From: Alphaproteobacteria bacterium CG_4_10_14_0_8_um_filter_37_21
GTDB lineage: Bacteria; Pseudomonadota; Alphaproteobacteria; Paracaedibacterales; UBA11393
Length of the DNA: 64,000 nucleotides
Assembly (NCBI GenBank): GCA_002791835.1
Contig: PFNE01000032.1
Span: 33,646 to 97,645 of the forward strand
Direction of reading: 5' to 3'
Shown in pieces: positions 5,372 to 63,193 of this stretch; position 1 is the stretch's first letter; each line of letters starts with the position of its first letter. Below the pieces are notes generated by a model. It did no database searches. It had not been told where the DNA came from and saw only the letters and a list, made by a program, of their open reading frames with translations. A program made the translations under genes and the position numbers.

Positions 5372-6088
5372 ATGCTTCAAGTAGAATTTTTATCTGTAAC
5401 ACTTGGGGGTGCAAAAATCCTTCATCAGGTTTCTTGCACTGTTCCAACTCACAGCATCATGGCTATTTTGGGTTTAAATGGTGCAGGAAAAACAACGCTT
5501 GTTAAAGCCATAGCCGGGCTTGTGCCTTTCACGGCAGATAAAGCAACTTTCAATAATCTCTCTTTAAAAAATTTAAAGTCGCATGAAATTGCGCAGCAAG
5601 GCATTATTTATGTACCTGAAAATAAGGAACTTTTTTATGGGCTATCTGTACAAGAAAACTTAGAAGTTGGGGCGCTTGTCAAAACCCTCATCCCTTCAAA
5701 AAAACACGTTCAAAAATTACTACAATCTGTATATGATTTATTTCCCAAACTCAAAGAACGCAGTACCCAAAAAGTAGAGACATTATCTGGCGGGGAACAA
5801 CAAATGGTTTGTATTGGGCGCGCCCTTATGGCGCAGCCGAAAGTTCTTATTTTAGATGAGCCAAGCCAGGGCCTTGCACCGCACATCGTGCAAAATCTTT
5901 TTAATAAAATTAAAGATTTAGCTAAAGCAGGCATGACTATTATTTTAAATGAACAAAATATCTATGCAGCATTAACAATAGCCGATAAAGCAATTGTTAT
6001 TGAAAATGGCATCGTGATTGAAGAGAAAAGCGCCGATAAGATGATGAATATGCTAACGCAAGGCAAACTATCATTACTCAATATTTAA
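5372..6088 (+). CDS. livF: ABC transporter ATP-binding protein, LivF type (branched-chain amino acid family)
   Basis: Walker A GLNGAGKTT, signature LSGGEQQM and Walker B LILDEPSQGLAP. Collinear with E. coli LivF (..YDLFPKLKERSTQ.., ..TIILNEQN..). Confidence 0.8.
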   Translation: MLQVEFLSVTLGGAKILHQVSCTVPTHSIMAILGLNGAGKTTLVKAIAGLVPFTADKATFNNLSLKNLKSHEIAQQGIIYVPENKELFYGLSVQENLEVGALVKTLIPSKKHVQKLLQSVYDLFPKLKERSTQKVETLSGGEQQMVCIGRALMAQPKVLILDEPSQGLAPHIVQNLFNKIKDLAKAGMTIILNEQNIYAALTIADKAIVIENGIVIEEKSADKMMNMLTQGKLSLLNI

Positions 6089-6172
6089 GTAAATAACAAT
6101 ATCTAGGAACGCGCGCAGTGCGACAATAGTTAAAAATTGCACTTGGGTTCAAAACAAAAAAACTGTTTTAAC

Positions 6173-7120
6173 TTAAGACGTTTTTTTATTACCCCACAGG
6201 GAAGCCACAATACCGCCGCTTAATAGTATGGCCGTCACACCAAGCGTTATACTTGTTGGCACTTTTGTAATTGGTAGAAAATGCACAGCAAAAATTTTAC
6301 CACCTATAAAAATCAACAGTAAGCTTAGTGAGTATTGCAGATATTTAAATTTATCTACCATCATTTGTAGTACAAAATAAAAAGACCTAAGCCCTAAAAT
6401 GGCAAAAATATTACTGCTATAGACAATAAAAGGATCTGTTGTGATGGAAAAAATAGCAGGGATGCTATCAACAGCAAAAACAACATCAACAAACTCTATC
6501 ATGATAAGGCTTAAAAACAATGGTGTTGCTGTATAGCATGTTTTAATCCATTTATCTTGATAAACTTCTGCCCCCTTTTTAAAAAACACTTCTTGATCAA
6601 GGTCATGATTTACATGAATAAATTTTTTAACAATGCGAAGCACCATGCTTTGAGAAATATCTTGATCAGTTTTTTGAGGCCTTAACATTTTAAGGCCTGC
6701 TATAACAAGGAATCCACCAAATATATAAAGAACAAAAGCCAATTCATTCACAACAATGCTGCCAAGGCCGATCAGAATACCACGCAAAACAACCGCGCCC
6801 AATATACCCCAAAACAATACTCTGTGTTGAAAGGCTGGGGGTATTTTAAAGTAAGAAAAAATCATTGAAATTATAAATATGTTATCAAGGGACAGAGACT
6901 TTTCAATTAAATACCCCGTTAAAAATTCTTGTGATTTGACACCCCCAAAGACCAAGTGCACGTAAGCAGCAAAACAAAAACTGATAACTATATAAAAAAT
7001 ACTAAGACCAAGACTTTTTTGAAAGCTTGGTGTGATGCCACGTTTATGAAAAATACCAAGATCTAAAATAAGTAGACTGAAGAAAATAACCAGTAGAAAT
7101 AACCAATGCAGTAGCGGCAT
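6173..7120 (-). CDS. TerC/Alx family integral membrane protein
   Basis: 315 aa and multi-TM. TerC-like motifs are EKSLSLDNIFI and FAVDSIPAIF..T.DPFIVYSSNIFAILGLRSFYF. Confidence 0.8.
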   Translation of the reverse strand: MPLLHWLFLLVIFFSLLILDLGIFHKRGITPSFQKSLGLSIFYIVISFCFAAYVHLVFGGVKSQEFLTGYLIEKSLSLDNIFIISMIFSYFKIPPAFQHRVLFWGILGAVVLRGILIGLGSIVVNELAFVLYIFGGFLVIAGLKMLRPQKTDQDISQSMVLRIVKKFIHVNHDLDQEVFFKKGAEVYQDKWIKTCYTATPLFLSLIMIEFVDVVFAVDSIPAIFSITTDPFIVYSSNIFAILGLRSFYFVLQMMVDKFKYLQYSLSLLLIFIGGKIFAVHFLPITKVPTSITLGVTAILLSGGIVASLWGNKKTS

Positions 7121-7228
7121 AGATTGAATATTACGAATAAATATTACTTAAAGCTTATCATTCTTTTATAACGCTTGCCACTGTTGCTGCCTTGGTGTGC
7201 AAAAAATATAGAAAACAATCTTTAAGGA

Positions 7229-8677
<1,449 letters not shown>

Positions 8678-11683: not shown

Positions 11684-12115
11684 ATGGATATAGTCGCCAT
11701 AATATCGGGCATAATAATTTTATATTTAGGGGGCGAGGCACTCATTAAAGGTGCAGTATCTGTTGCCAGACATTTAAAAATTTCTAAAATTTTAGTAAGC
11801 TCTGTTATCGTGGGCTTTGGTACATCAATGCCAGAAATGACGGTTTCAGTAGACGCCATGTTGAAAAATACACCCGAAATTGCCGTTGGAAATGTAATTG
11901 GTAGCAATATTGCAAATATTTTATTAATACTGGGGATATCTGCCCTGATAACCCCCTTTCGCATGACTAATAACAGTATAAAAAGAGATGTTTGTGTGAT
12001 GCTGAGTGCGACAATAATTTTTTCTTTATTGGGTGCCTTGCAAAAAATTGGTTTTTTTCACGGATTATTATTATTAGGGATATTAGTAACTTATATAATT
12101 TATTCCTACATTCGC
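11684..12115 (+). pseudogene. 5' fragment (~145 codons) of a CaCA-family (YrbG-like Na+/Ca2+) antiporter gene
   Basis: MDIVAIISGIIILYLGGEALIKGAVSVARHLKISKILVSSVIVGFGTSMPEMTVS...GNVIGSNIANILLILGISALITPF corresponds to TM1-5 with the alpha-1 repeat (GTSxPE). Similarity ends near 12110 and the frame then runs out of register into nhaA-derived sequence. Confidence 0.7.
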
Positions 12116-12665
12116 GCCCTACATTATTGTTGGCATTTTTTTATGGGTTTGCGTTTTAAAATCAGGCATACATGCAACATTAGCCGGCATTATAGTAGCA
12201 CTGTCGATTCCACTTCGCACAAAAAATGTGTCTGATCACTCACCTGCAATTTCTTTGGAACACAAGCTACACCCTTGGGTCGCGTACGGCATACTGCCAA
12301 TATTCGCCTTTGCAAATGCCGGAATTCCCTTAAAAGGATTTTCTTTAGACATGTTACGCCATCCAATTACCATGGGCATTGCGCTTGGTTTATTTTTTGG
12401 CAAGCAAATTGGCATTATGACAATGACAATCATAGGCGTCTCCATTAAAAAATGCGCACTGCCAAAAGGTGTAACTTGGAAGCAATTTTATGCGATGTCT
12501 CTTTTAACTGGCATTGGCTTTACCATGAGCTTGTTTATTGGAAACCTAGCCTTTGACAATGCACACAATAAAATTTTCATTAGATTAGGGGTCATCTTTG
12601 GCTCTCTTTTATCTGGAATCGCAGGCTATATCTTGCTGAAAAAAACTTGTCCAAACAAGGACTAG
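12099..12665 (+). pseudogene. nhaA: 3' fragment (~185 codons) of Na+/H+ antiporter nhaA
   Basis: Reading the frame of ORF 12228..12665 back to the TAA at 12096-12098 gives YIIVGIFLWVCVLKSGIHATLAGIIVALSIPL...SLEHKLHPWVAYGILPIFAFANAG...GIGFTMSLFI. This is collinear with the C-terminal half of E. coli NhaA. The N-terminal half is absent. Confidence 0.8.
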
Positions 12666-16861: not shown

Positions 16862-18034
16862 ATGTATATGTTGTTTAAAAAGATAACTTTATCAATATTA
16901 TTGATTCCTTTTTTTTGCTTTGGTCAGGAAACCAATTTTTATGACGAAAATAACAACAACACAATATTTACAAACACAGAAAACCCGACAGACAAAGATT
17001 TTAGGCCCCAAAATTACCACATTATAACAGAAAAGACTTTTCAATCATTTTTAGAAAATTTAGAAAATTTTACTACAATAGCTGCCATGGTAAACCTTGT
17101 ATTTTCTTCTGTAGACTTTAAAATAAATGGCCACAATATAATCGCTTTCCTTGATGGACAAACCTTAGGAATCCCCAATACTTGCAATCTTACCAGTATA
17201 GTTGGCAAGATTTCGAATACAAGCGAAGAAAAAGATCTTTTATCCATTTTATTGTTTTTAAAGAAAAAAAATTGCTCAACATACCTTGCTTTACCTAAAT
17301 GCTTTATAAGTATCGGACGAAACACTTATTGCACCTTATACCATAAAGCTGAAGGAAAACAGGCAGACATCCCCATAAATAAGTTTGGTCAGCATTCTAA
17401 GCCAGATTGTGTTTTAGCTATCATAAGAAGAATTGCACACTCTTTATTTGACTTCCACGACATATTGCGCCCAAGCAAGGACGAAATCGATTCTTTTATG
17501 AAATCCGAAAAAGCAAGTTTGAAATTTTATTTAGGTGAAACAGATTCCCCTCCATGCACATCACCTGTGGGGACAGACGCTACCTTCTTAAGGTTATTTC
17601 TTTCTATAAATCATGGTGATTTACATACAGGCAATATATTTATAACAGCACAAGAGAAAATTACTTTTATAGATTTTTTATCTATGGCACGTAATTTGCC
17701 AGATCGAGATGGATATGCACCAATTACAAACGATGTGTCCTATTTTATTGCATGTACTTTTTGCCATCACCGCGAATTATTTAAAAAACCTTTAGGCAGA
17801 GGACTTTTATTACATTCCATGGTCCATTTTCTGGCAGCATACCTATCGCATATATCACCAGATTATCACCAAGATTTTTTTTATTATATATATGATCATT
17901 TCAAGATGCTTTTAAAACACCTAATCTTTCCTGGACCTGAAAACCAAGAAACGCGAATTCATTTTTATGACATTTTTTCATTAAATATCATACCAGAAAC
18001 CAGAAAGATTCTAGAAAGCGTAGCATGCACTTAA
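16862..18034 (+). CDS. Hypothetical exported protein with an APH/ChoK-like (protein-kinase-fold) catalytic motif
   Basis: 390 aa. The N-terminus LFKKITLSILLIPFFCFGQE looks like a signal peptide. HGDLHTGNIF (17612-17635) followed by ITFIDF (17660-17677) matches the catalytic loop plus metal-binding Asp of the aminoglycoside/choline kinase family. Confidence 0.5.
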   Translation: MYMLFKKITLSILLIPFFCFGQETNFYDENNNNTIFTNTENPTDKDFRPQNYHIITEKTFQSFLENLENFTTIAAMVNLVFSSVDFKINGHNIIAFLDGQTLGIPNTCNLTSIVGKISNTSEEKDLLSILLFLKKKNCSTYLALPKCFISIGRNTYCTLYHKAEGKQADIPINKFGQHSKPDCVLAIIRRIAHSLFDFHDILRPSKDEIDSFMKSEKASLKFYLGETDSPPCTSPVGTDATFLRLFLSINHGDLHTGNIFITAQEKITFIDFLSMARNLPDRDGYAPITNDVSYFIACTFCHHRELFKKPLGRGLLLHSMVHFLAAYLSHISPDYHQDFFYYIYDHFKMLLKHLIFPGPENQETRIHFYDIFSLNIIPETRKILESVACT

Positions 18035-18058
18035 ATTATATATAACTGTTTTAAGAAC

Positions 18059-18802
18059 TTATGACCATGACTTATCATCATGTGTTAGAATTTTATTCAG
18101 ACCATTATATGCTTCTAACGTACCAATATCACACCATAAGTGATGATAGCGTGCGCCCCATAAGCGATTATTTTTTTCTGCATGATGGAAAACAGGCAGC
18201 ATGGGGTAGTGTTTATCCTGTGATTTATAATTTAAAAACCCTTTTTTAGACCATATTTGCACCCCACCATAAATATACGAAGGGCGAGTATAAGATTTTT
18301 CAGAGTGTTCCTTATGCCTTAAAGGAAAAATTGTTTCTAAGTAACCTTTTTGTGGATAATAATCAGCATCTTTGTTAAAAAATAATGCATTTTCTTTTGG
18401 CACCATCATTAACAAAGCATCCATAATTTTGGTATCAAACGCATAAGCCATACGTTCAAGAAAATCAGGATCATTAAACCAAATATCCCCATTTATGGTC
18501 ACAAAAATATCATCTAATTCTGTTATAGCGTTCTTTATACCACCACCAGTTTCTAGAATTTCCTTTTCATTAATCAACACGATTTTTGGATCATTTTGAA
18601 AATGGTAATGAATTTGCTTTGCTAAGTAGTGCGTATTAATCACAATTTTTTCAACACCAAAATCTTTTAAATAGTTCACAATATATTGAATGCAGGGAAT
18701 ACTTTGAACAGGCAACAAGGGCTTTGGGGTTGTAAGTGTTAAAGGGCGTAGGCGCGTACCCATTCCTGCCGCTAAAATCATTGCTGTTTTTATATTGACC
18801 AT
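18059..18802 (-). CDS. murU: Sugar-phosphate nucleotidyltransferase, MurU-like (MurNAc-1-P uridylyltransferase)
   Basis: MILAAGMGTRLRPLTLTTPKPLLPV...IVINTHYLAKQI...ETGGGIKNA...VTINGDIW is collinear with Pseudomonas MurU as I recall it. Confidence 0.7.
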   Translation of the reverse strand: MVNIKTAMILAAGMGTRLRPLTLTTPKPLLPVQSIPCIQYIVNYLKDFGVEKIVINTHYLAKQIHYHFQNDPKIVLINEKEILETGGGIKNAITELDDIFVTINGDIWFNDPDFLERMAYAFDTKIMDALLMMVPKENALFFNKDADYYPQKGYLETIFPLRHKEHSEKSYTRPSYIYGGVQIWSKKGFLNYKSQDKHYPMLPVFHHAEKNNRLWGARYHHLWCDIGTLEAYNGLNKILTHDDKSWS

Positions 18803-19042
18803 AGATTTGCGCGCCTTAATTCAAAAGTAAAATGATGAACGCCATTTATAAACTTAGTGTATAAATAGGGGGGCGCCCTTATAGAAGATAAGTAATTTTA
18901 ACATTTGTAAAAAAGTCTGTACACTCACCATCATTAGTTTAAAAAAACAAGAATCCGTTTAGTTGCAGCACTAATATTCGCGTGTTTCTTGAAAAAACAG
19001 TTTGTGATATTCTATTGCTATAGATATTTGGAGCTTACGTTA

Positions 19043-19552
19043 ATGTCTCTTGCTAAAGTGAATCGTAATAAAGAACCTAAAAGTTTTTTGGGGGCACGCC
19101 CCCTTTTATTTGATCGCCTTGTTGACATGGATTCAACAAATCCCTTTGAAACGGCTGATCATCATTATTTAACAAAAGATCAGGTAAAACAATCTATTCA
19201 ATTAGAAATTAGCCGTTTGCTGAACACGCGAAGAGTGGGAGGCATGCCAAAAAATCAAGATGATATATTTCAGGATTCGGAGGAAAGTTTAAGTGCGCCA
19301 TCTTATTTTGGCTTACCAGATTTCCAATCTTACGATGCTGCAAATGCCCAAGATTGGGATTTAATTGCAAATTTGATAAAAAATTCTATTAGTTATTTTG
19401 AGACGCGCCTTAAAAATATAGAAGTAGAAGTTCTTAATTTTAATAATAATAAACAACTTCTAGAGGTTAATATTACAGGCAGTTTAAACCTAAAAAAAAC
19501 AAAGGGAGAGGTTACTTTTCCGGTTGTAATTGACTGTACACCGCGCCGTTAA
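19043..19552 (+). CDS. tssE: Type VI secretion baseplate protein TssE (gp25-like)
   Basis: Start moved to ATG 19043, with GGAG 8 nt upstream. TssE landmarks occur in the expected order: PLLFDRLVD, LEISRLLNTRR, YFGLPDF, ISYFETRL, LEVNITGSL. Confidence 0.75.
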   Translation: MSLAKVNRNKEPKSFLGARPLLFDRLVDMDSTNPFETADHHYLTKDQVKQSIQLEISRLLNTRRVGGMPKNQDDIFQDSEESLSAPSYFGLPDFQSYDAANAQDWDLIANLIKNSISYFETRLKNIEVEVLNFNNNKQLLEVNITGSLNLKKTKGEVTFPVVIDCTPRR

Positions 19553-19629: not shown

Positions 19630-20268
19630 CTAACTGTTTTTTTTCCTCATTTTATTCACAAAGTCTACAAGTCCTACTTGGCGGTGGCGTTTTAAGCGCT
19701 CGGCCTTCAAGATAAGCTCTATTTGTTTTATGCTTTTATCTAGATCGCGATTGATAATAACATAATCATATTCAGGCCAATGGCTAATTTGAAATAAGGA
19801 TTCAGTCATACGCTGTTCAACAACTTCCTTTGTGTCCGTTGCGCGCCTGTTTAATCTGTCTTCTAATGCTTGAATTGATGGGGGTAAAATAAAAACTGTG
19901 ATAAGGTCTTGGGCACACTTTTCTTGTAGTTGCTGTGTTCCTTGCCAGTCAATATCCAATAAAACATCTTTACCAGAGGTTATGATCTCTTCCACAGATT
20001 GTTTTGATGTGCCGTAATAATTACCAAATACTTTTGCATGCTCCAAAAAACCACCGCTTTGTAAGCGTTCTTCAAAGTGTTTTTGATTTTCAAAGTGATA
20101 ATCTTTGCCGTGAACTTCTCCCTTTCTTATGGGGCGGGTTGTAACAGATACTGATAATTGAACTTGATTATCTTTTGCAAGTAGGGCGCGCGCTATGGTG
20201 GTTTTTCCAGCCCCAGATGGGGATGATAGCACTAACATAAGGCCTTTACGTTTTATGCTGTCTTGCAT
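19630..20268 (-). CDS. gmk: Guanylate kinase
   Basis: 212 aa. P-loop SSPSGAGKTT, plus VSVTTRPIRKGEVHGKDYHF. Confidence 0.93.
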   Translation of the reverse strand: MQDSIKRKGLMLVLSSPSGAGKTTIARALLAKDNQVQLSVSVTTRPIRKGEVHGKDYHFENQKHFEERLQSGGFLEHAKVFGNYYGTSKQSVEEIITSGKDVLLDIDWQGTQQLQEKCAQDLITVFILPPSIQALEDRLNRRATDTKEVVEQRMTESLFQISHWPEYDYVIINRDLDKSIKQIELILKAERLKRHRQVGLVDFVNKMRKKNS

Positions 20269-20822
20269 TAAAGCTCTCTTTCATGACTATTTGGTTTTAT
20301 CAGTTCGTCTTCAAATCCGAAGGTCGTTAAGTCTGTCATTCGATCGGGAAATAAAATGCCATTTAGGTGATCCATTTCATGTTGAACAACACGCGCATGA
20401 AAGCCCTCGGCAACGCGGGTGTGCTTTTCCCCTAATATATCATAAAAAGAATAGCTTATTTTTTTATATCGGGGCACTTTTCCAACAAGTGCTGGCAAAG
20501 AAATACATGCCTCCCATCCAACGAGTTGTTCATTGGATATGACTGTAACTTCTGGGTTTATTAAGGCATGTAGGTCCATAGGCTCTACAGATTCAACGCC
20601 ATATCTTGGATGAATTTTATCTGGCAGCCTGAAAATAAAAATACGTTTTGACACATTAACTTGAGGGGCAGCTAATCCTAAGCGTTTATTTTGCTGTTTT
20701 AGGGTGAACATCATGTCATGAATAAGTTCATGGTAATTTTCTATATGCTTCAAATTAACAGGTTCTGCAACTTGCTTAAGAACCGGATTTCCCATATGGG
20801 TAAAAGAAAGTAGCTTTGGCAT
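20268..20822 (-). CDS. def: Peptide deformylase
   Basis: Motif 1 GLAAPQV, motif 2 EACIS (a variant of EGCLS) and motif 3 QHEMDHLNG. One-nt overlap with the gmk start. Confidence 0.88.
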   Translation of the reverse strand: MPKLLSFTHMGNPVLKQVAEPVNLKHIENYHELIHDMMFTLKQQNKRLGLAAPQVNVSKRIFIFRLPDKIHPRYGVESVEPMDLHALINPEVTVISNEQLVGWEACISLPALVGKVPRYKKISYSFYDILGEKHTRVAEGFHARVVQHEMDHLNGILFPDRMTDLTTFGFEDELIKPNSHEREL

Positions 20823-23789: not shown

Positions 23790-24659
23790 ATGAATAAAAA
23801 AACATTTTTATTGGGTTTTTTAAGCCTCACAGCCTTTAATGTACCATCTAATGCTATGGCATCTGATGTATCATCATTATTAAAAAAAGCATTCCCACAA
23901 TCAATGTTTTCTTCAAAGTGTTCATCTGGAAATGCTAAAATTAATTGGAATCTTGTTGCACAAGCAGAAAAAGCAGGTGGTGGTCGTACTATTGAGAAAA
24001 AAGCCGCAGATAGAATAAAGCCTTGTTTAGATGGCAGTAATCCAAATTATCAAAAGAAATTTAAAGAAAACTGTGGATTAGCAAGTGCGGATTCTCAGGC
24101 TAAAGAGAAATATTGTGGGAGTGGTATTGCACTCATCAACAAACAAGAAAACCCTTTTGGTGACGACGACGAACAAGAGGATTCTTTTGAAGGCGCTCAA
24201 CAACAACCTGTCATGGGTACACCAATGCAGGGTCAAGGGAATTATTTTGGAGGCGCTCAACAACAACCTGTTATGGGCACACCAATGCAGGGTCAAGGTA
24301 ATAATTTTGGAGGCGCTCAACAACAACAACCTGTCATGGGCACACCAATGCAGGGTCAAGGTAATATGAACAATGTGGACGCAGCCAGAATTGAAACATT
24401 AGAACAGCAGTTACAAGAATTAACGCAATATATACAGCAACTTGTGCCATTTGTACAACAGTTAAGCGAACAAGTACAATTATTGCAATCGCAGCAACAG
24501 CAAGGTGGCTTTTCTGGACAGCAACAAGGCGGCTTTGGTGGCCAGCAACAATACAATCAACAACAAGGCGGCTATGGCCAGCAACAATACACTCAACCAC
24601 AAGGCGGCTATGGCCAGCAACAATACACTCAACCACAAGGCGGCTATGGTGGGGATTAA
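23790..24659 (+). CDS. Secreted repeat protein: Cys-containing N-domain, 3x20-aa repeats, coiled-coil segment and a Q/G/Y-rich tail
   Basis: Signal peptide MNKKTFLLGFLSLTAFNVPSNAMA. GGAQQQPVMGTPMQGQGN occurs three times. A heptad-like segment reads IETLEQQLQELTQYIQQLVPFVQQLSEQVQLLQ. The tail reads QQGGYGQQQYTQPQGGYGQQQYTQPQGGYGGD. Confidence 0.6.
   Translation: MNKKTFLLGFLSLTAFNVPSNAMASDVSSLLKKAFPQSMFSSKCSSGNAKINWNLVAQAEKAGGGRTIEKKAADRIKPCLDGSNPNYQKKFKENCGLASADSQAKEKYCGSGIALINKQENPFGDDDEQEDSFEGAQQQPVMGTPMQGQGNYFGGAQQQPVMGTPMQGQGNNFGGAQQQQPVMGTPMQGQGNMNNVDAARIETLEQQLQELTQYIQQLVPFVQQLSEQVQLLQSQQQQGGFSGQQQGGFGGQQQYNQQQGGYGQQQYTQPQGGYGQQQYTQPQGGYGGD
24181..24363 (+). repeat. Three tandem near-identical 60/60/63-nt repeats inside the CDS
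   Basis: The units at 24181-24240, 24241-24300 and 24301-24363 align column for column (..ttttggaggcgctcaacaacaacctgtYatgggYacaccaatgcagggtcaaggKa..). They differ by a few substitutions and one extra CAA. Confidence 0.92.
24564..24649 (+). repeat. About 2.4 tandem copies of a 36-nt repeat (caaggcggctatggccagcaacaatacactcaacca)
   Basis: Units 24564-24599 and 24600-24635 are identical, and a partial third copy ends at 24649. More degenerate copies lie upstream from about 24494. Confidence 0.9.
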
Positions 24660-29471: not shown

Positions 29472-30287
29472 ATGACAAAAGTAGAAATTAAAAAAAACGC
29501 TCATTTAAAAAATGTATCAGCAGACCATCAAAAAACGCTTTTTTTTGAAAAAATTGTAGATATGGCCAATCCAAAAAGAATGAACCGCTTTACTGTAGGG
29601 AAACCAACGCAATATGTACGCCCATCTATACTAGGTGCAATAACAATTTTGTTTATTATTGTTATGTATCAATATTTTAAAAGTGCTAACGATACAGAAA
29701 ATACACTTGAACATAAGTTTTCAAGGCTTGAAAAGCTAAATAATCAGTCCTTTAAAAGCCTGGACTATTATGCAAATATTAAAGCAACAAAAATTTCAGT
29801 ATCGGGCGTTTCGAACATTTATGGTGCCTTAAATATAGCAGATTCACACTTAAAAGATGTGAATGTGTATGGCCCGTTAACAGCACAAAACGCCTATTTT
29901 CAAGATGCAAACATTTATGGATTTGCTATTTTATCAACAACACGCTTTCGTGACTTAGAAGTTTATGGTCAACTTTCAGCAAATAAGCTTGTGATTGAAA
30001 GTGATATATTTGTGGCAAGCACTGTTAATTTGGATCATGCACAAATCAACCGCATGGAATGTGCAGGCGCTGATATCAACCTACATAATTCAATAGTTAA
30101 AAAAATTACAGTTAGCGGAGAAGATGCTAAAAACCCCGTTATAAACCTTACAAACAGTCAAGTTGATCTTGTAAAATTTGATGGCATGGAAGGTGAAGTC
30201 ATCTTGTACGGCGACCTTTCTAGTGTACAAGAAGTAAAAGGTGGCACAATAACACGAAAAAATATCAGCGTATTAAAAAAGTCTTAA
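29472..30287 (+). CDS. Membrane-anchored protein with a beta-helix-like (bactofilin/polymer-forming-like) repeat domain
   Basis: One TM (ILGAITILFIIVMY), followed by repeats of about 16-18 aa: DVNVYGPLTAQNAYFQ / DANIYGFAILSTTRFR / DLEVYGQLSANKLVIE / ... Confidence 0.4.
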   Translation: MTKVEIKKNAHLKNVSADHQKTLFFEKIVDMANPKRMNRFTVGKPTQYVRPSILGAITILFIIVMYQYFKSANDTENTLEHKFSRLEKLNNQSFKSLDYYANIKATKISVSGVSNIYGALNIADSHLKDVNVYGPLTAQNAYFQDANIYGFAILSTTRFRDLEVYGQLSANKLVIESDIFVASTVNLDHAQINRMECAGADINLHNSIVKKITVSGEDAKNPVINLTNSQVDLVKFDGMEGEVILYGDLSSVQEVKGGTITRKNISVLKKS

Positions 30288-32360: not shown

Positions 32361-32449
32361 CCGTTCATTTTCAACATATACTTGACTTTCATTTTTTTTT
32401 CTTATATATTCTGTGATTATTGCTATTATATTCTGTAAAAGGAAATACT

Positions 32450-33814
32450 ATGACTTTAAATAAAACATTAATTACTGTATTTTTTTGTAGTTTACAACTC
32501 ATTGCTTCCAATGATGGTGGAGAAAAAGAACAACCCACGCCAAATTTGTCTCGTTCAAGTACGCCTGAATCACCTACGTATAATGGTTCTTACGCTAGGC
32601 GCGCCTTAAATACTGTTTCTACCCCAATCAAAAAAACTGCTTCATTTCTGTTTGATGACCCTCAAAATCCCGCTCAAAAACCCAGAACCCCTGAAGAATT
32701 AAATGTCATGTTGGGGGGGGATTTGCTAAAAAATTTATTAAAGCAACCTTTACCCCAAGATTTGCAAAACTTTATTTTGCATCATCCTGATATTTTAACA
32801 GCTATTGCCGCATCAGCAAGTGCATACAAAGATACCCGTTCGGAAGAAGCGCATCCTGTTAATATATATTTAAATTCTCTAGGGTTTGTCATTGAAGTAC
32901 TTTCTGACAACCTAGTTTTACTAAAAAGGACAACTGCTGAGGGCGTTAAACAAGCTTGGTTTTCTGTTACTGGCACTGATTCTATTTCTGATGCCATTAC
33001 AAATATTGGAATTGGTACACACATGCATGCACGTGACTACCATAATTTTATAACATCTGTGTGGTCAGATCATGTGGCGCCAAAACTCTATTCAAAAAAT
33101 AGCTATTGCGCATCAGCATTCAATTATATTTCAAATTTACCGTTAAATTTATATCATATGGTAAATATCGCTTTTTTTACTGCGTCTATGTATGGTTTTT
33201 CTAAAACTGATCGTATACAAAATTTGTATGACACATATTTTGGCATGTTATGTTCCGCAGGCTTTATGATGAGTGCTGCTATTTATTGGAACATGACGCC
33301 GCATGCATTATATACACTACGTTACAAACCACATACAAATCGCTTGCTAGCGCGCATACGTATGCGCCGCAAAGAATTAGAAGCAGAAGGGTATACAGAT
33401 TTCTTTGTAACAGGGCATTCTGCAGGTGGGCATGGCGCACAGATTTTAGGGTTATTAACCGGAATGCGTTCATTTAGCTTTAACGCACCTGGCGGGGCAC
33501 TGCGGCATGCACTGTGGATCTATAAAAGCCTTGAAGATACAGATGGTATCAAAGAGCCTACAGAAGATGAATATAAAGAAAATGTATTGGCAGTTACCAC
33601 AAATAAGGACCCTGTTTCTGCTTTACAGCATGAGCAAGACCCTATTCAACCAACACAAATCGCCTTAAATGGGATTGATGGATTTATTGTCCTGCATAAA
33701 ATATTAACACTTTTTATGCAAGCACAGACACTACATGTTTTTTTGAAGACACTGGCACAACAAGTATTAGTTTTAGATAATGGGGCACCACCAGAATTAC
33801 CTAAAGCACAATAG
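32450..33814 (+). CDS. Exported class-3-lipase-like alpha/beta hydrolase
   Basis: Start taken at ATG 32450 (AAAGGAAA RBS). Signal-like MTLNKTLITVFFCSLQLIAS. Lipase_3-like elements occur in order: WFSVTGTDSISDA, nucleophile elbow FFVTGHSAGGHGA (33413-33430), SFSFNAPGG and TTNKDPVS. Confidence 0.6.
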   Translation: MTLNKTLITVFFCSLQLIASNDGGEKEQPTPNLSRSSTPESPTYNGSYARRALNTVSTPIKKTASFLFDDPQNPAQKPRTPEELNVMLGGDLLKNLLKQPLPQDLQNFILHHPDILTAIAASASAYKDTRSEEAHPVNIYLNSLGFVIEVLSDNLVLLKRTTAEGVKQAWFSVTGTDSISDAITNIGIGTHMHARDYHNFITSVWSDHVAPKLYSKNSYCASAFNYISNLPLNLYHMVNIAFFTASMYGFSKTDRIQNLYDTYFGMLCSAGFMMSAAIYWNMTPHALYTLRYKPHTNRLLARIRMRRKELEAEGYTDFFVTGHSAGGHGAQILGLLTGMRSFSFNAPGGALRHALWIYKSLEDTDGIKEPTEDEYKENVLAVTTNKDPVSALQHEQDPIQPTQIALNGIDGFIVLHKILTLFMQAQTLHVFLKTLAQQVLVLDNGAPPELPKAQ

Positions 33815-36730: not shown

Positions 36731-37741
36731 CTATTGTTGAAGTGGAATTTTTGTCATCATAAATTGAACAAAATCTTCACGTGTTGAAATTTGGGCCATT
36801 TGATCAAATTCAGCAAAAACAGACTGTTTTGGCATAGGAATACCCATTGTGTCACAGGCAGTTGCTAAAATCCATTCATTTACAGCACTAGACCCGCGTT
36901 TGTAAGGCATTGTCACAGCAAATTTATGGAAAAATTTAAATGCAGATTCAGGGGTGGGGGCGCAGAGAAGATCCTTAAATAAATCATATAATTCAGATAT
37001 AGCGGGACTATCTTTTGAAGCAGATCCATGCGTTTGCAATATTGCGTTCATATAGCTGTTACCATCAGAAGCATGGGTAATTGATAAACAAAATCGTCTT
37101 GATAACGCTTCTTCGCCTGATAAGGAGGTGCTATAAATAAAAAGTTTTGAGTTTTCAGGGAAATTTTGTTGCTGGTATTTTAATTTTTCTAAAATGATTT
37201 CACGTTCTATTCTAGTCCACCCCTTCTTATGAAGGAACTCATCTCTTTTCCCATTCGGGGCTTTAAGGTTCTTAATTATTTCTGACTGCTGTTCAGGGGA
37301 GAATGAAAAAATGAGATACATTGTTTCTAGTGCACCTGCTACAAAATCTCTCATAATTCCGTATGGGTGTAAGTCAGTGAAACTTGTTATGTCATCACGG
37401 ATGCAACCAAAGATATCCTTGTCTTCTGATTTGCATTTTTCTGCAATAGCCTGCCTCTTTTTTCCTAGATTTTCTAAAAATGTCCAAAACGAGATTTTAG
37501 TGAATTGACCGGGTATTTTTCTCCAGATATTAATTGACTTACCTAAACTGGCTATTACCTTTTGGCTTTCCACTTTATAAATATTTTTAGCATCTGGTAT
37601 ACCATGATAGTGGGGAATTTTATCTTCAGGAATTAACGCTGAAGACAGCGCATCATCTGATACTGGCAGTCGATTCGCATCCTCTGCAGCACATGCAATG
37701 CCTAGTGATAGTATAGAAAAAGTAATAATAATTTTTTTCAT
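36731..37741 (-). CDS. Hypothetical exported protein, no recognisable domain
   Basis: 336 aa. Clear signal peptide MKKIIITFSILSLGIACAAEDA. It has its own terminator and a long AT-rich upstream region. Confidence 0.55.
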   Translation of the reverse strand: MKKIIITFSILSLGIACAAEDANRLPVSDDALSSALIPEDKIPHYHGIPDAKNIYKVESQKVIASLGKSINIWRKIPGQFTKISFWTFLENLGKKRQAIAEKCKSEDKDIFGCIRDDITSFTDLHPYGIMRDFVAGALETMYLIFSFSPEQQSEIIKNLKAPNGKRDEFLHKKGWTRIEREIILEKLKYQQQNFPENSKLFIYSTSLSGEEALSRRFCLSITHASDGNSYMNAILQTHGSASKDSPAISELYDLFKDLLCAPTPESAFKFFHKFAVTMPYKRGSSAVNEWILATACDTMGIPMPKQSVFAEFDQMAQISTREDFVQFMMTKIPLQQ

Positions 37742-41103: not shown

Positions 41104-41180
<77 letters not shown>

Positions 41181-41199
41181 CCTTACCAGGATTCTTTTT

Positions 41200-41505
41200 A
41201 TGACCTCAGTTATTATTTTTGAACATGAGACTGTCGTTAATCAATCTGCTTATGCTGTTAAAAATTTATGGCGGCTACAGTATATTAAAAATCAGGATCA
41301 AAGGCATATTGGCCCTATCGGCTGGATAGCAGATTGTGACACAAACCCCCAAGTTGATATTTCATTTGAAAGTCTAGAAAAAGCACTGTCATTTGCTGAA
41401 AAAAGTGGATATGTCGTTTTAGAAGTTCGTCACAGCCCTTTAAAAGAAGCACCTTCCCATAAAAGCTATGCCGACAACTTTAAAAACGGCAAAATAAGAT
41501 CATAA
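41200..41505 (+). CDS. NDUFS4-like 'ETC complex I subunit conserved region' protein
   Basis: Start moved to ATG 41200 because the ORF-track N-terminus overlaps tRNA-Pro. A C-terminal KSYADNF and an [13 protein letters not shown] segment match the alphaproteobacterial NDUFS4 homologue family. Confidence 0.72.
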
Positions 41506-52462: not shown

Positions 52463-53032
52463 ATGGCAAAAAAAACAATTTTCTTTGATCAGGTTGAACA
52501 TGTACTGCAAGATCACCTATTGCACCATGATATAACGCATAATATTCCTATATTATATATTCACCCAGCTTCTTTAGTCCGCGTCTTAACAATACTGCGC
52601 GATCATCATTTGTTTTTATTCAAACAATTGGTTGATATTGTCGCAATCGATTATCCTGGCCGACTGCAGCGCTTTGAACTGACATACCACCTACTAAGCC
52701 TTCAAAATAATGAACGTGTATTTTTAAAAGTTGGGGTCAAAGACCAAGAAAAAATATCAACAGTTACACATATTTTACCAAACGCCCATTGGTACGAACG
52801 TGAAGTTTGGGACATGATGGGGGTTTCTTTTAAAGATCACCCTAACCTTGAACGTATTTTGACGGACTATAATTTTGAGGGGCACCCCTTAAGAAAAGAC
52901 TTTCCATTAACTGGGCATACACAAGTCTATTATGATCAAGAAAAGCAAAAAGTTGATTATCAACCCGTGGCCTTAGAACAAAATTATAGAATTTTTGACT
53001 TTGAGTCCCCATGGGCAAACAAAAACTCTTAA
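52463..53032 (+). CDS. nuoC: NADH-quinone oxidoreductase subunit C
   Basis: 189 aa. NAHWYEREVWDMMGVSFKDHPNLERILTDYNFEGHPLRKDFPLTG is the NuoC/30-kDa subunit signature. Confidence 0.88.
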   Translation: MAKKTIFFDQVEHVLQDHLLHHDITHNIPILYIHPASLVRVLTILRDHHLFLFKQLVDIVAIDYPGRLQRFELTYHLLSLQNNERVFLKVGVKDQEKISTVTHILPNAHWYEREVWDMMGVSFKDHPNLERILTDYNFEGHPLRKDFPLTGHTQVYYDQEKQKVDYQPVALEQNYRIFDFESPWANKNS

Positions 53033-59483: not shown

Positions 59484-60923
59484 TCAAGAATATTTGTTTA
59501 AGTTTATTTGATTCATGGCATATTTTCCAGGGGCAGGTCGAAGCGTTTCAAATGTGTCATTTTTTTGTGCCAAATGTTTACCACCCATTTTTTTTACTAT
59601 CCATGAAGACCAATTTCCCCACCAAGACCCATCGTGCTTAACAATTTCCTGTTTTTCATGACAATATGTTGAAAAATGATATTTATTTTGTGTGGGTGGA
59701 TTAATGATGCCAGCAATGTGACCCGACCCACCAAGAATATATTCCACATTATTTCCATTTGTTCTGAGCGCTAAAGCCGAAGCAGGGGGTACGATATGAT
59801 CCTTTTCAGTTGCCACAACAAAAGTTGGAAGCGTTAAATTATTTATATTTATTTTTTTTTGTTCTATAGAGTATTGGCCTTGAATTAGTTGATTTTTTAG
59901 CAAGAATTTTTCTAAATATTCTAAATGAAGTTTTGCTGGAATATTAATTGAATCCATATTCCAATATAAAATATCATTTTCAATAGGTTCTTTATTTAAG
60001 TAGTATTGATCAACCATATTTTTAAAAATAAGACTTTCTGATTTTAGTAAACAAAACATTTTAAACAGATCATCTCCAGATTGATAGCCCTTTGACATTA
60101 TCTTATCTACATATAAAGAAAAATTTTCGTTTGTTATAAATTGTTTCATTTGATGTAAGTGTGAAAAATCGACAGGTGTCGCTAAAAGTGATAGTGACTT
60201 TATTTGTGTATGATTATTTCTTATTGATGCAATAAGTGCTGCAAGACCACCAACACAGAATCCTAATAGATGTAGGGGCTTATTAATTATAGAAACACTT
60301 TTTTCTACACCCTTTATAATATAGTCCTCTAACCCAATATCTATATCAATGTAAGTAGCACTTTTCCAGGAGATAATAAAAACATCAATTCCTTCCTTAA
60401 GACAGTACTGTATAAAAGATTGCTCCTTATTTATGTCTAAGATGTAGTATTTATTGATCCAAGGTGGGGAGATTAGTAAGGGCTCTTTATATATATCACG
60501 ACAAAGTGGTTTATAGTGAATGAGTTCAATAATATGATTTTCATAAATAACATCACCTTTTGAGGGGGCTAAATTATCGCCAAGGTAATTATTTTGGATT
60601 TTGCTAAGTGTTGGAATTTTATTTTCCTGAACATCTTTAATCCACTTTTGAAATCCTTCTCGCATACTTAACCCGCCATCATGCAATATATTTTCCATAA
60701 CATTTTTATTTGTAAATGGATAATATTTTGGATTGCTGATAATTTTTAGATGCTCAAGGCATTGATCCATGTCTCGCACACCAACATTATGCAATATATG
60801 ACGCATTGAATCTAGGGCATCTGCTCCTAAATCATATTCCGAATTTATGAAGTCCAAAATCTTACTATGCATGTGAACATCTTTTGCATGGAATTCATTT
60901 AAATTATATGTTACTTTGTTCAT
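59484..60923 (-). CDS. phaC: Poly(3-hydroxyalkanoate) synthase PhaC-like alpha/beta hydrolase
   Basis: 479 aa. Lipase-box variant with Cys (LLGFCVGGLA), ATEKDHIVP, and GGSGHIAGIINPP. It is shorter at the N-terminus than typical class I enzymes. Confidence 0.78.
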   Translation of the reverse strand: MNKVTYNLNEFHAKDVHMHSKILDFINSEYDLGADALDSMRHILHNVGVRDMDQCLEHLKIISNPKYYPFTNKNVMENILHDGGLSMREGFQKWIKDVQENKIPTLSKIQNNYLGDNLAPSKGDVIYENHIIELIHYKPLCRDIYKEPLLISPPWINKYYILDINKEQSFIQYCLKEGIDVFIISWKSATYIDIDIGLEDYIIKGVEKSVSIINKPLHLLGFCVGGLAALIASIRNNHTQIKSLSLLATPVDFSHLHQMKQFITNENFSLYVDKIMSKGYQSGDDLFKMFCLLKSESLIFKNMVDQYYLNKEPIENDILYWNMDSINIPAKLHLEYLEKFLLKNQLIQGQYSIEQKKININNLTLPTFVVATEKDHIVPPASALALRTNGNNVEYILGGSGHIAGIINPPTQNKYHFSTYCHEKQEIVKHDGSWWGNWSSWIVKKMGGKHLAQKNDTFETLRPAPGKYAMNQINLNKYS

Positions 60924-60948
60924 GATACCTCTTCTCTATTCTTATTTT

Positions 60949-61554
60949 ATGCCATTAAAAGTAAATAAATCCTTAACGCCCCCAATTGTTTCACGTGAAA
61001 CAATTGACAGTTTCAAATCATATTACGAGTTGTTGTATCGGTGGAATAAATCAATTTCCCTGATGAAAATCTCTAATTGGGATGAATTTTATCAAAGGCA
61101 CATGATCGACAGCATTCAGCTTTGCGAACTTATAGATAAAGTTGTAAGAATAATTGATATTGGTAGTGGTGCGGGAATCCCTGGTATACCATTATCAATT
61201 ATGGGATATAATGTGACTATGGTAGAGTCAACTTTAAAGAAAACAACATTCTTAAAGCAAAGTATTAACAGCTTAAAATTAAATGCACATGTAATATCAG
61301 ATAGAATTGAAAATACTAACTTCAATGAACCTGTTACTGTCACGGCTAGAGCCCTGACATCTCTTGAAAACTTACTCTCTTACATGGAAAATGTTTCACG
61401 TGAAACAGTCGGTATATTTTTAAAAGGTAAAACCCTGGAAAATGAAATAGTGAAAGCAAAAAAAGAATGGTTGTTTGATTCTCAAATATATAATAGCATT
61501 ACAGGAGATGGTTATATTATTAAAGTAACAAATTTGAAACGGAAAAGCACATAA
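60949..61554 (+). CDS. rsmG: 16S rRNA (guanine527-N7)-methyltransferase RsmG (GidB)
   Basis: VSRETIDSFKSYYELLYRWNKSISL and a SAM motif IIDIGSGAGIPGIPL. The start is ambiguous (TTG 60916, ATG 60922 or ATG 60949); the first two would overlap the phaC start codon. Confidence 0.85.
   Translation: MPLKVNKSLTPPIVSRETIDSFKSYYELLYRWNKSISLMKISNWDEFYQRHMIDSIQLCELIDKVVRIIDIGSGAGIPGIPLSIMGYNVTMVESTLKKTTFLKQSINSLKLNAHVISDRIENTNFNEPVTVTARALTSLENLLSYMENVSRETVGIFLKGKTLENEIVKAKKEWLFDSQIYNSITGDGYIIKVTNLKRKST
60987..61002. promoter_or_regulatory. parS site 1 (perfect consensus), the core of a 24-bp perfect palindrome at 60983-61006
   Basis: TGTTTCACGTGAAACA, with the extended palindrome CAATTGTTTCACGTGAAACAATTG. 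Confidence 0.88.
61392..61407. promoter_or_regulatory. parS site 2 (perfect consensus)
   Basis: TGTTTCACGTGAAACA inside rsmG, 405 bp from site 1 and about 150 bp upstream of parA. Confidence 0.88.
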
Positions 61555-62333
61555 TGTCAAAAATTATTGTCATTGCCAACCAAAAAGGTGGTGTTGGGAA
61601 AACCACAACATCAGTAAACATTGCAACAGCACTTGCTGCTGCAGATAAAAAAGTCCTTTTAATTGATCTTGATCCACAAGCAAATGCTTCTACAGGCCTT
61701 GGCATATCTAGGGGCGAGCGTAAATTCACCTCATACCATCTGTTAATAGATGGATGCACTGTTGGCGAAGCCATCATGCAATCAATCGTTCCAGGGCTTT
61801 CAATTATACCCTCATCTATAGAACTTATTGGTGCTGAGATTGAACTTGTAGATAAGCATGAGCGTGAACATTGTTTAAGAAAAATGATAGAACCTTATAA
61901 AAATATGTTTGATTATATTTTTATAGATTGTCCACCATCAATGGGGCTTCTTACATTAAATGCACTCGTTTGTGCAGATTCAGTTTTAGTACCACTGCAA
62001 TGCGAATACTATGCCTTAGAAGGGTTAAGTTATCTCCTCAATTCTATACAAAAAGTTAGAGCTAACTTTAATAATAGTTTAAAACTATTCGGTGTTGTTC
62101 TAACGATGTTTGACAAAAGAAGTGGCCTTTGCGCTCAGGTTGCTAAGGATGTTAGGAAACACCTGAAAAACAAAGTATTTCAAACGGTTATCCCTAGAAA
62201 TGTACGCGTATCAGAGGCGCCATCCCACGGGAAGCCTGTGTTATTATACGACGTTCATTCAACAGGATCAAAAGCATATATGGGACTTGCAAAAGAAATA
62301 TTACAACAAGAAAAAGAAAGAATAGCAGCATGA
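61554..62333 (+). CDS. parA: Chromosome partitioning ATPase ParA (Soj)
   Basis: IIVIANQKGGVGKTTTSVNIA carries the deviant Walker A. LIDLDPQANAS is also present. Its start overlaps the rsmG stop (TAATG). Confidence 0.93.
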   Translation: MSKIIVIANQKGGVGKTTTSVNIATALAAADKKVLLIDLDPQANASTGLGISRGERKFTSYHLLIDGCTVGEAIMQSIVPGLSIIPSSIELIGAEIELVDKHEREHCLRKMIEPYKNMFDYIFIDCPPSMGLLTLNALVCADSVLVPLQCEYYALEGLSYLLNSIQKVRANFNNSLKLFGVVLTMFDKRSGLCAQVAKDVRKHLKNKVFQTVIPRNVRVSEAPSHGKPVLLYDVHSTGSKAYMGLAKEILQQEKERIAA

Positions 62334-63193
62334 GCACAACAGGAACTCCTTTAGGAAAAGGGCTCGCCGCTCTACTTGGCGACTTAGATTATACTGAAGA
62401 ACTTACAGCAGCAATGGGTTCACAGCTAGCAACGGCAGAAATACAGCAGTTACAACCCGGCAAAATGCAGCCACGACAACGTTTTGATTCTGAAAACATG
62501 GCACATTTAATAGAATCAATTCGTCAAAAAGGTGTTTTACAACCAATTCTTGTTCGATCGTTAACAGAAGATTCATTTGAAATTATAGCCGGTGAACGGC
62601 GTTGGCGCGCATCGAAAGAAGCTGGTTTAAAGAATGTACCAATTATAATTGTAGAGTGTGACGATGAAGAGGCTTTAGAAGTTGGGTTAATCGAAAACCT
62701 ACAACGCGATGATCTAAACGCCATTGAAGAAGCAGAATCACTAAAAAAACTTGTGGATGATTTCGGCAAAACACAAGAAGAAGTAGCACTGTCAGTTAGC
62801 AAAAGCAGAAGTTATGTAGCCAATCTTTTACGGTTAACAACCCTTCCAGACTATGTAAAAGACTTAATTAGAAATGGAAAATTAAGTGCTGGGCATGCTA
62901 GAACGCTTATTGGATCACCTAATATAGAAGAACTTGTTCAACAAATATTAAACGAGAAACTATCTGTTAGAGAAGCAGAAACAAGAAGAAAAGAGAAAAC
63001 AACACGTACACAGAAAAATACTTTAGGCCAAGAAACTGTTGATCCAGATATTATAGTGGTGCAGGAAATCATTGAAGGCGCGCTTAACTTGCCAACAAAA
63101 ATTAACATTAGTAAGCGTGGTGGGCAAATCAAGCTTTCATTTGATACGTATGAACAACTTGATACGCTGGTTTCAAAGCTGCAAACTATATAA
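62330..63193 (+). CDS. parB: Chromosome partitioning protein ParB (Spo0J)
   Basis: QPRQRFD, GVLQPILVR, IIAGERRWRAS, and an HTH region (QEEVALSVSKSRSYVANLLRL). ATGA overlap with parA. Confidence 0.93.
   Translation: MSTTGTPLGKGLAALLGDLDYTEELTAAMGSQLATAEIQQLQPGKMQPRQRFDSENMAHLIESIRQKGVLQPILVRSLTEDSFEIIAGERRWRASKEAGLKNVPIIIVECDDEEALEVGLIENLQRDDLNAIEEAESLKKLVDDFGKTQEEVALSVSKSRSYVANLLRLTTLPDYVKDLIRNGKLSAGHARTLIGSPNIEELVQQILNEKLSVREAETRRKEKTTRTQKNTLGQETVDPDIIVVQEIIEGALNLPTKINISKRGGQIKLSFDTYEQLDTLVSKLQTI

Follow-up and report, generated by a model that had tools for sequence, protein, structure and literature searches.

A solitary tssE gene of a probably dispersed T6SS in a Holosporales bacterium of the UBA11393 lineage

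Here we report that an isolated open reading frame (ORF) in a 64-kb stretch of DNA (all of which is referred to below as the window) encodes a genuine, intact TssE, the gp25-like subunit of the T6SS baseplate wedge, and is very probably the functional tssE gene of a T6SS whose genes are spread over the chromosome of a Holosporales bacterium of the UBA11393 lineage. According to the literature, a stand-alone tssE is the expected state for Holosporales, and a dispersed Holosporales T6SS with a lone tssE has already been published, so that the window case is confirmatory. Our analysis extends the dispersed-T6SS pattern to the UBA11393 lineage, establishes in quantitative terms that isolated tssE and vgrG genes are as constrained as housekeeping genes, and reveals that each of the two has kept a conserved 5′ region of its own while its genomic surroundings were repeatedly rearranged. 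Such private regions provide a small handle on how endosymbiont-type bacteria co-express a fragmented secretion machine.

According to a 2025 review, nearly every Holosporales genome outside Holospora has a conserved T6SS, which is described there as 'probably non-standard', with some components undetected (PMC11909080). In the Bodocaedibacteraceae, Paracaedibacteraceae and Caedimonadaceae, the T6SS core genes are found at four or more loci, comprising tssB-tssC-hcp, tssG-tssF and tssK-L-M-A, together with a vgrG at its own locus (PMC8163844). The tssE gene of Ca. Bodocaedibacter vickermanii, CPBP_00258, stands alone (Midha et al., Supplementary Table 3; PMC8163844). The T6SS gene closest to it is over 90 locus tags away, and it is transcribed, as RNA-seq reads map to it (PMC8163844). 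Furthermore, a 2025/2026 study reported that Bodo endosymbionts of the GTDB family UBA11393 encode a T6SS (PMC12999062).

Identity and structure of the TssE protein

The tssE ORF extends from an ATG at 19043 to a stop codon at 19550-19552 on the plus strand and encodes 169 residues (Table 1). A Shine-Dalgarno sequence, GGAG, is located at 19030-19033, 10-13 nt 5′ of the ATG. A longer reading from a TTG at 18989 was rejected as non-coding, because the upstream block contains a 1-nt indel between lineages, and this start is also ruled out by the N-terminus MSLAKV, which is shared by all close TssE homologues.

The window protein scores 83 bits against TIGR03357, the NCBIfam TssE equivalog model (cut-off 53.2; E = 1.4e-23), and 49.5 bits against PF04965, the Pfam GPW_gp25 family (cut-off 27.2). 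The profile search against gp25/TssE models that a preliminary description of the window had proposed as a check thus places the protein above both curated cut-offs. The five TssE motifs named in that description are all present, comprising PLLFDRLVD (residues 20-28), SRLLNTRR (57-64), YFGLPDF (88-94), YFETRL (118-123) and LEVNITGSL (140-148). In an alignment of 119 TssE sequences, the motif cores LFDRL, LNTR, G.PDF and FE.RL are the most conserved columns, and the family-invariant residues T62, R63, G90, E120 and R122 are all kept in the window protein. The EPRL turn contains a Glu-Arg salt bridge, and its glutamate is essential for the function of P. aeruginosa HsiF1 (PMC3352280). E120 and R122 of the window TssE, at positions that are invariant in 119 of the 119 family sequences, correspond to this salt bridge, so that both the essential glutamate and its arginine partner are present. 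The turn reads E120-T121-R122-L123, with Thr replacing Pro at the middle position of the EPR triplet; Thr is the minority state there, occurring in 11 of the 119 family members, and Pro occurs in 105.

We analysed the predicted structure using an AlphaFold model built from the 119-sequence alignment. The model has an overall pLDDT of 76.2, rising above 90 in the C-terminal helix and the three-stranded sheet, whereas the N-terminal ~45 residues form an extension that is modelled at low confidence. The predicted structure adopts the gp25 fold, with helices on a three-stranded antiparallel sheet. In a Foldseek search against the PDB, all six matches at E<=1e-3 are gp25-family baseplate proteins, headed by T4 gp25 (5iv5 and 5iw9) and EAEC TssE (6gj1_D; TM 0.65 to the window model) and including the Klebsiella phage baseplate protein 9f4b and Geobacter GSU0986 (2ia7). 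A sequence-profile search of the PDB gave a single, non-significant match, to the eCIS gp25 7aeb_S (E = 0.09). The gene call and the name are already public, as the GenBank entry PIZ33044.1, named TssE, is identical to the window protein.

Genomic neighbourhood of tssE in the window

The units flanking tssE are on the minus strand on both sides, and tssE must therefore be monocistronic. The minus-strand unit downstream of the gene consists of gmk-def-yidD. The neighbours had been described as murU, gmk and def, and the latter two assignments are borne out by equivalog cut-offs; the first stands only in part, as the upstream product scores 136.6 bits against the MurU model, below its cut-off of 250, and is thus referred to as MurU-like.

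Table 1 Features of the window discussed in this study.
Feature	Position	Strand	Evidence or remark
tssE, T6SS baseplate wedge subunit (gp25-like), 169 aa	19043..19552	+	ORF + TIGR03357 + PF04965
Conserved non-coding tssE leader, TTTCTTGAA...TGATAT.CTAT...TATAGATATTTGGAGCTTACGTTA	18985..19042	+	Cross-lineage alignment
MurU-like sugar-phosphate nucleotidyltransferase, divergent from tssE	18059..18802	-	MurU is the best model, below cut-off
gmk, convergent with tssE	19630-20268	-	Above equivalog cut-off
def, convergent with tssE	20268-20822	-	Above equivalog cut-off
Isolated atpD	7229-8671		
Isolated nuoC	52463-53032		
Isolated NDUFS4-like gene	41110-41505		

In agreement with the preliminary description, no other T6SS gene was found in the 64 kb by Pfam searches of ORFs of at least 120 aa or by tblastn against the six-frame translation of the window, using as queries the 17 proteins of a complete canonical T6SS cluster from a Rhizobium tumorigenes plasmid. 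The tblastn search matched tssE (E = 2.6e-8), and its sole additional match was the OmpA-type domain of MotB. The gene does not lie at the edge of a normal T6SS cluster, with 19 kb upstream and 44 kb downstream containing no T6SS gene. Five window ORFs (16862-18034, 23790-24659, 29472-30287, 32420-33814 and 36731-37741) match no family, and none of them is Hcp-sized; a very diverged accessory T6SS component could conceivably be among them.

The window otherwise contains housekeeping genes, including gyrA, groES/EL, lnt, rpiB, ABC transporters, an xerC/D-like recombinase, malic enzyme, pyrG, alr, glmM, xseA, ssb, pnp and an htrA-like protease, as well as motAB, phaC, gidB-parAB, an isolated atpD and an isolated nuoC. 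The latter two genes, encoding the ATP synthase beta subunit and the 30-kDa subunit of complex I, respectively, are located alone, away from their usual operons, and fit an earlier remark on operon fragmentation elsewhere in the window; an NDUFS4-like gene is likewise isolated. In the related genome L031, atpB-E-F form a separate block. Operon break-up is general in the window's genome and is not specific to the T6SS.

Several further features of the window were observed. The ORF at 16862-18034 on the plus strand encodes a 390-aa product that begins with a hydrophobic leader and belongs to no Pfam family, and is kept at the equivalent position in L001 and L002. The product gave only weak local matches, in which residues ~248-273 (HGDLHTGNIF) align with the catalytic loops of small-molecule or atypical kinases such as UbiB, MTRK and Bud32, with E values of 3.5e-4 to 0.3 that are far under the cut-offs; it may be a secreted kinase-like protein. 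The plus-strand ORF at 23790-24659 encodes a protein of 289 aa that is rich in Gln and Gly, starts with a signal-peptide-like segment and matches no family. Its gene contains in-frame tandem repeats of 60 bp x3 (24185-24366) and 36 bp x3.5 (24522-24649), and its product is called as 277 aa in L001, a contig that shows no other difference. At 11684-12665 on the plus strand, two adjacent short ORFs of 183 aa (Na_Ca_ex) and 145 aa (NhaA-type Na_H_antiport_1) look like transporter-gene fragments and may be pseudogenes. A gidB (rsmG)-parA-parB set is found at 60916-63193 on the plus strand. In many bacteria this set is located near the replication origin, and the window may therefore be close to the origin.

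Dispersed tssE and vgrG loci in related genomes

The tssE gene is solitary in every low-GC Holosporales-type locus that we read, and these loci represent five different neighbourhoods. It lies between a murU-like gene and gmk in the window, L001 and L002; between a rimK-like gene and hypotheticals, among IS66 fragments, in L007 and L008; between an FAD-dependent oxidoreductase and hypotheticals in L011 and L012; between FYDLN_acid and the acyl-ACP-phospholipid acyltransferase gene (aas) in L009; and between sspB and an acyltransferase in L033, from the metagenome-assembled genome (MAG) GCA_977971875.1. Thus, the window and four other lineages lack a T6SS core gene adjacent to tssE. The nearest case is L011, in which a gene for a 721-aa VgrG is located 4.4 kb from tssE, with map, rpsD and ruvC between them. 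The same motif scan also recovered TssE relatives at 28-32% identity from bacteria of 52-67% GC, and those with enough flanking sequence all lie in tssA-B-C-hcp-tssE-F-G-vgrG clusters. In a metagenome scan, Holosporales tssE was found on short contigs only, besides canonical clusters of unrelated high-GC bacteria.

Using the L011 VgrG as a query, we identified an orthologue, P0013, that is 82% identical to it and occurs in exactly the two assemblies in which the window's exact TssE is found (ENA ERZ27293407 and Logan SRR6240744). In both, vgrG is on a different contig from tssE and is solitary in the arrangement glmS-LOG-vgrG-ruvC-rpsD-map. In tetranucleotide composition, the vgrG contig correlates with the window at r = 0.99, and its GC content is 0.366; P0013 corresponds to PIZ32755.1 (COY39_04530), which belongs to the same GenBank accession series as the TssE PIZ33044.1. 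From this co-occurrence, composition and accession series, the vgrG contig appears to come from the window's organism. The co-occurring VgrG is T6SS-type, being 29-34% identical to Rhizobium TssI with E values down to 5e-90, and its gene has a dN/dS of 0.04-0.09.

The vgrG gene occupies a locus of its own in L028 and L029 (the window's organism), L030, L011, L031 and L032, and the other vgrG genes of related Holosporales are each solitary, each in a different context. In the Holosporales MAG GCA_977971875.1, a solitary tssE and a solitary vgrG lie on different contigs. No further T6SS gene was found in the flanks of five vgrG and six tssE loci, nor did a TssC alignment match anything in IMG/VR. 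The preliminary description had proposed, as one reading, a T6SS whose genes are scattered; the five solitary tssE neighbourhoods and the solitary vgrG of the same organism support this proposal, and the literature likewise places the core genes at four or more loci, with tssE alone (PMC8163844).

Around tssE and vgrG in L007, L030 and L031 (JGI sample 3300056827), we observed many IS66, IS630, IS1 and IS5-type transposase fragments, which could plausibly have driven the changes of neighbourhood in these relatives; no transposase was found near tssE in the window itself. Two further observations concern the contigs that carry solitary vgrG genes. In L028, from the window's organism, an ORF at 5397-7232 on the minus strand, 3 kb from vgrG, encodes a 611-aa lipoxygenase (PF00305), a family that is uncommon in bacteria and typical of eukaryotes; the gene is also present in L029 and is absent from that position in L030. 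In L032, from the MAG GCA_977971875.1, a phage-portal gene (17979-19187, minus strand) stands alone among housekeeping genes, which recalls a report of dispersed GTA-like genes in endosymbionts of protists (PMC9254644).

The host genome falls within the Holosporales. The TssE of the MAG 'Holosporales bacterium UBA11393', the only species-representative genome with a close TssE relative, which a genome scan recovered on one short contig, is 87% identical to that of the window, and the VgrG relatives carry the names Holosporales, Finniella, Odyssella and Paracaedibacteraceae. The window has a GC content of 36.4% (0.364), and several metagenome assemblies contain its exact TssE, flanked by the same genes. 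The host is probably protist-associated.

Purifying selection on tssE

Seven lineages with 79-95% identity share the 169-aa TssE, the call in a single database entry being longer by 13 codons. In four lineages with 51-54% identity, the protein has 157-179 aa, and a full-length TssE is kept in more than ten lineages. The dN/dS of tssE (Nei-Gojobori, NG86) is 0.04-0.11 in 10 of 10 pairs among five lineages, although several pairs have a dS above 1.5, near saturation, making those ratios imprecise; the pairs with a dS of 0.5-0.9 give about 0.09-0.11. The dN/dS comparison across relatives suggested in the preliminary description thus reveals strong purifying selection. The housekeeping genes ruvC, rpsD, map, glmS and LOG, compared among the same kind of lineages, have ratios of 0.02-0.08. 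The GC content (0.351) and GC3 (0.247) of tssE are equal to those of its neighbour genes, and a recent horizontal acquisition was rejected on this basis.

Conserved regions upstream of tssE and vgrG

The ~58-65 bp directly 5′ of the tssE ATG are nearly invariant in five lineages with different upstream neighbours (Table 1; the pattern can also be written TGATAT.CTAT...TATAGATAT). The similarity ends abruptly further upstream and, on the other side of the gene, right past the stop codon. This leader holds the Shine-Dalgarno GGAG and an imperfect inverted repeat, occurs once in the window and, in the window, carries a 1-nt indel relative to the consensus. It matched no Rfam family, and RNA structure prediction gave a weak hairpin only, without covariation. 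A scan for sigma-70 promoter and terminator consensus sequences around tssE gave matches at chance level, the 'terminators' falling inside the ORF. From its conservation pattern, the leader is presumed to be a DNA-level promoter/operator and ribosome-binding region, or 5′ UTR, that moves with the gene. This conservation is not described in the papers that we consulted.

The vgrG gene has its own conserved upstream block (CTCGACAAAAAGG...), which is kept between vgrG genes of ~50% identity in unrelated contexts and may be a promoter or operator. In L028, L030, L011, L031 and L032, the block reads C[TC]CT[CA]GACA[AT]AA..G ... TCA.AATA and lies about 40-65 bp 5′ of vgrG. No motif common to the tssE leader and the vgrG upstream block was visible, and we therefore make no claim of a regulon. 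It is unlikely that the leader is the operator of a dedicated regulator of a dispersed T6SS regulon, or that it marks an extra, T6SS-independent function of tssE; were either the case, this lineage would provide a natural experiment in the stoichiometric co-expression of a machine after operon break-up.

Alternative explanations

The preliminary description had also considered that tssE might be the relic of a lost cluster, an ORF left over from a T6SS that has gone and not yet decayed. The 64 kb without any other T6SS gene, the genome fragmentation and IS activity in relatives, and the possible gene fragments elsewhere in the window would all accord with such a loss. It is, however, contradicted by the strong purifying selection on tssE, with dN/dS at 0.04-0.11 in comparisons that are close to saturation at synonymous sites, and by the retention of length and invariant residues in more than ten lineages. 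Moreover, the conserved leader survives rearrangements, an equally constrained vgrG is kept in the same organism, and a T6SS has been reported in the same GTDB family, UBA11393 (PMC12999062). We regard decay from a lost system as very improbable.

A further reading raised in the preliminary description is a gp25-fold protein used elsewhere: it would have been recruited to a role outside the T6SS and be kept by selection for that role, independently of an injection machine. The E. coli protein IraD, a gp25-like anti-adaptor of RssB, shows that recruitment of this fold is possible. IraD is among the weaker fold matches of the window protein (6od1_B, E 1e-2), Thr takes the place of Pro in the EPR turn, and the gene is solitary and monocistronic with its own conserved control region. 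Against recruitment, the protein passes the TssE equivalog cut-off, beyond the general gp25 domain; its best fold matches are baseplate gp25/TssE proteins; and a continuous sequence gradient connects it to the TssEs of canonical clusters. A solitary tssE is also the norm in Holosporales that have a full T6SS gene set (PMC8163844), and we consider recruitment, for which we found no positive support, improbable. It is scarcely credible that the gene was left behind by a prophage, an eCIS/T6SS-iv or some other phage-tail-like element and is not a T6SS-i component. To our knowledge, gp25/gpW-like proteins are universal in contractile tails, and a related MAG carries the solitary, GTA-like phage-portal gene; yet the surroundings of tssE lack sheath, tube, spike and gp6/gp7-like genes as well as integrase-linked or other phage genes, the composition of the gene is native, and the co-occurring spike is a T6SS-type VgrG. 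The tssE gene is not in an operon with particle genes, and its product does not resemble the gp25 of eCIS or phages more than T6SS TssE: its match to the eCIS gp25 7aeb_S has E = 0.09, compared with E = 1.4e-23 for the T6SS-i TssE model.

Proposed model of a dispersed T6SS

In the dispersed T6SS that we favour, TssE would play the part established for TssE/gp25: together with TssF2-TssG(-TssK), it would make up the wedge that surrounds the VgrG hub in the cytoplasmic baseplate, and it would set off TssBC sheath polymerisation on the Hcp tube. The gene would be expressed as its own monocistronic unit from the short conserved leader, which stays joined to tssE through genome rearrangement. Its partner genes would be at other loci: vgrG was observed at such a locus, and tssBC-hcp, tssFG and tssKLMA are expected by analogy with related genomes. 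We infer that the protein assembles into a working T6SS, and published analyses of related genera suggest that the remaining core genes are present in the window's genome.

Comparison with known systems

The closest published counterpart is Ca. B. vickermanii (PMC8163844), which resembles the window's organism in its low-GC, rearranged genome. The two belong to different family-level lineages, the window to UBA11393, and their TssE proteins differ in length, with 169 aa in the window and 143 aa in Ca. B. vickermanii (the 432-bp CPBP_00258). Unlike in the system described in PMC8163844, no ywqK partner was found beside the vgrG of the window's organism within the flanks that we read.

A comparison with canonical T6SS-i TssE proteins (EAEC 6gj1, P. 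aeruginosa HsiF1 and Rhizobium tumorigenes L013) revealed that the window TssE passes the same equivalog model, shares the predicted core of a helix and a three-stranded beta-sheet, and keeps LFDRL, LNTR and E.R. By contrast, it is only 24.5% identical to the Rhizobium TssE and has ETR in place of the canonical EPR. Moreover, whereas canonical tssE is co-transcribed in tssBC-(hcp/tagJ)-tssE-tssF-tssG, the window tssE is monocistronic among housekeeping genes.

T4 gp25 (5iw9 and 5iv5), a phage baseplate protein and initiator of sheath polymerisation, belongs to the same Pfam family and is the best structural match (Foldseek E 7e-5 to 3e-4, probability 1.00), although it shares only 15-16% identity with the window TssE. 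E. coli IraD likewise has a gp25 fold and stands alone, but its role is non-structural; its fold match is much weaker than those of gp25 and TssE, it has no match to the TssE equivalog architecture and, unlike IraD, the window tssE has nothing that ties it to RssB-type regulation.
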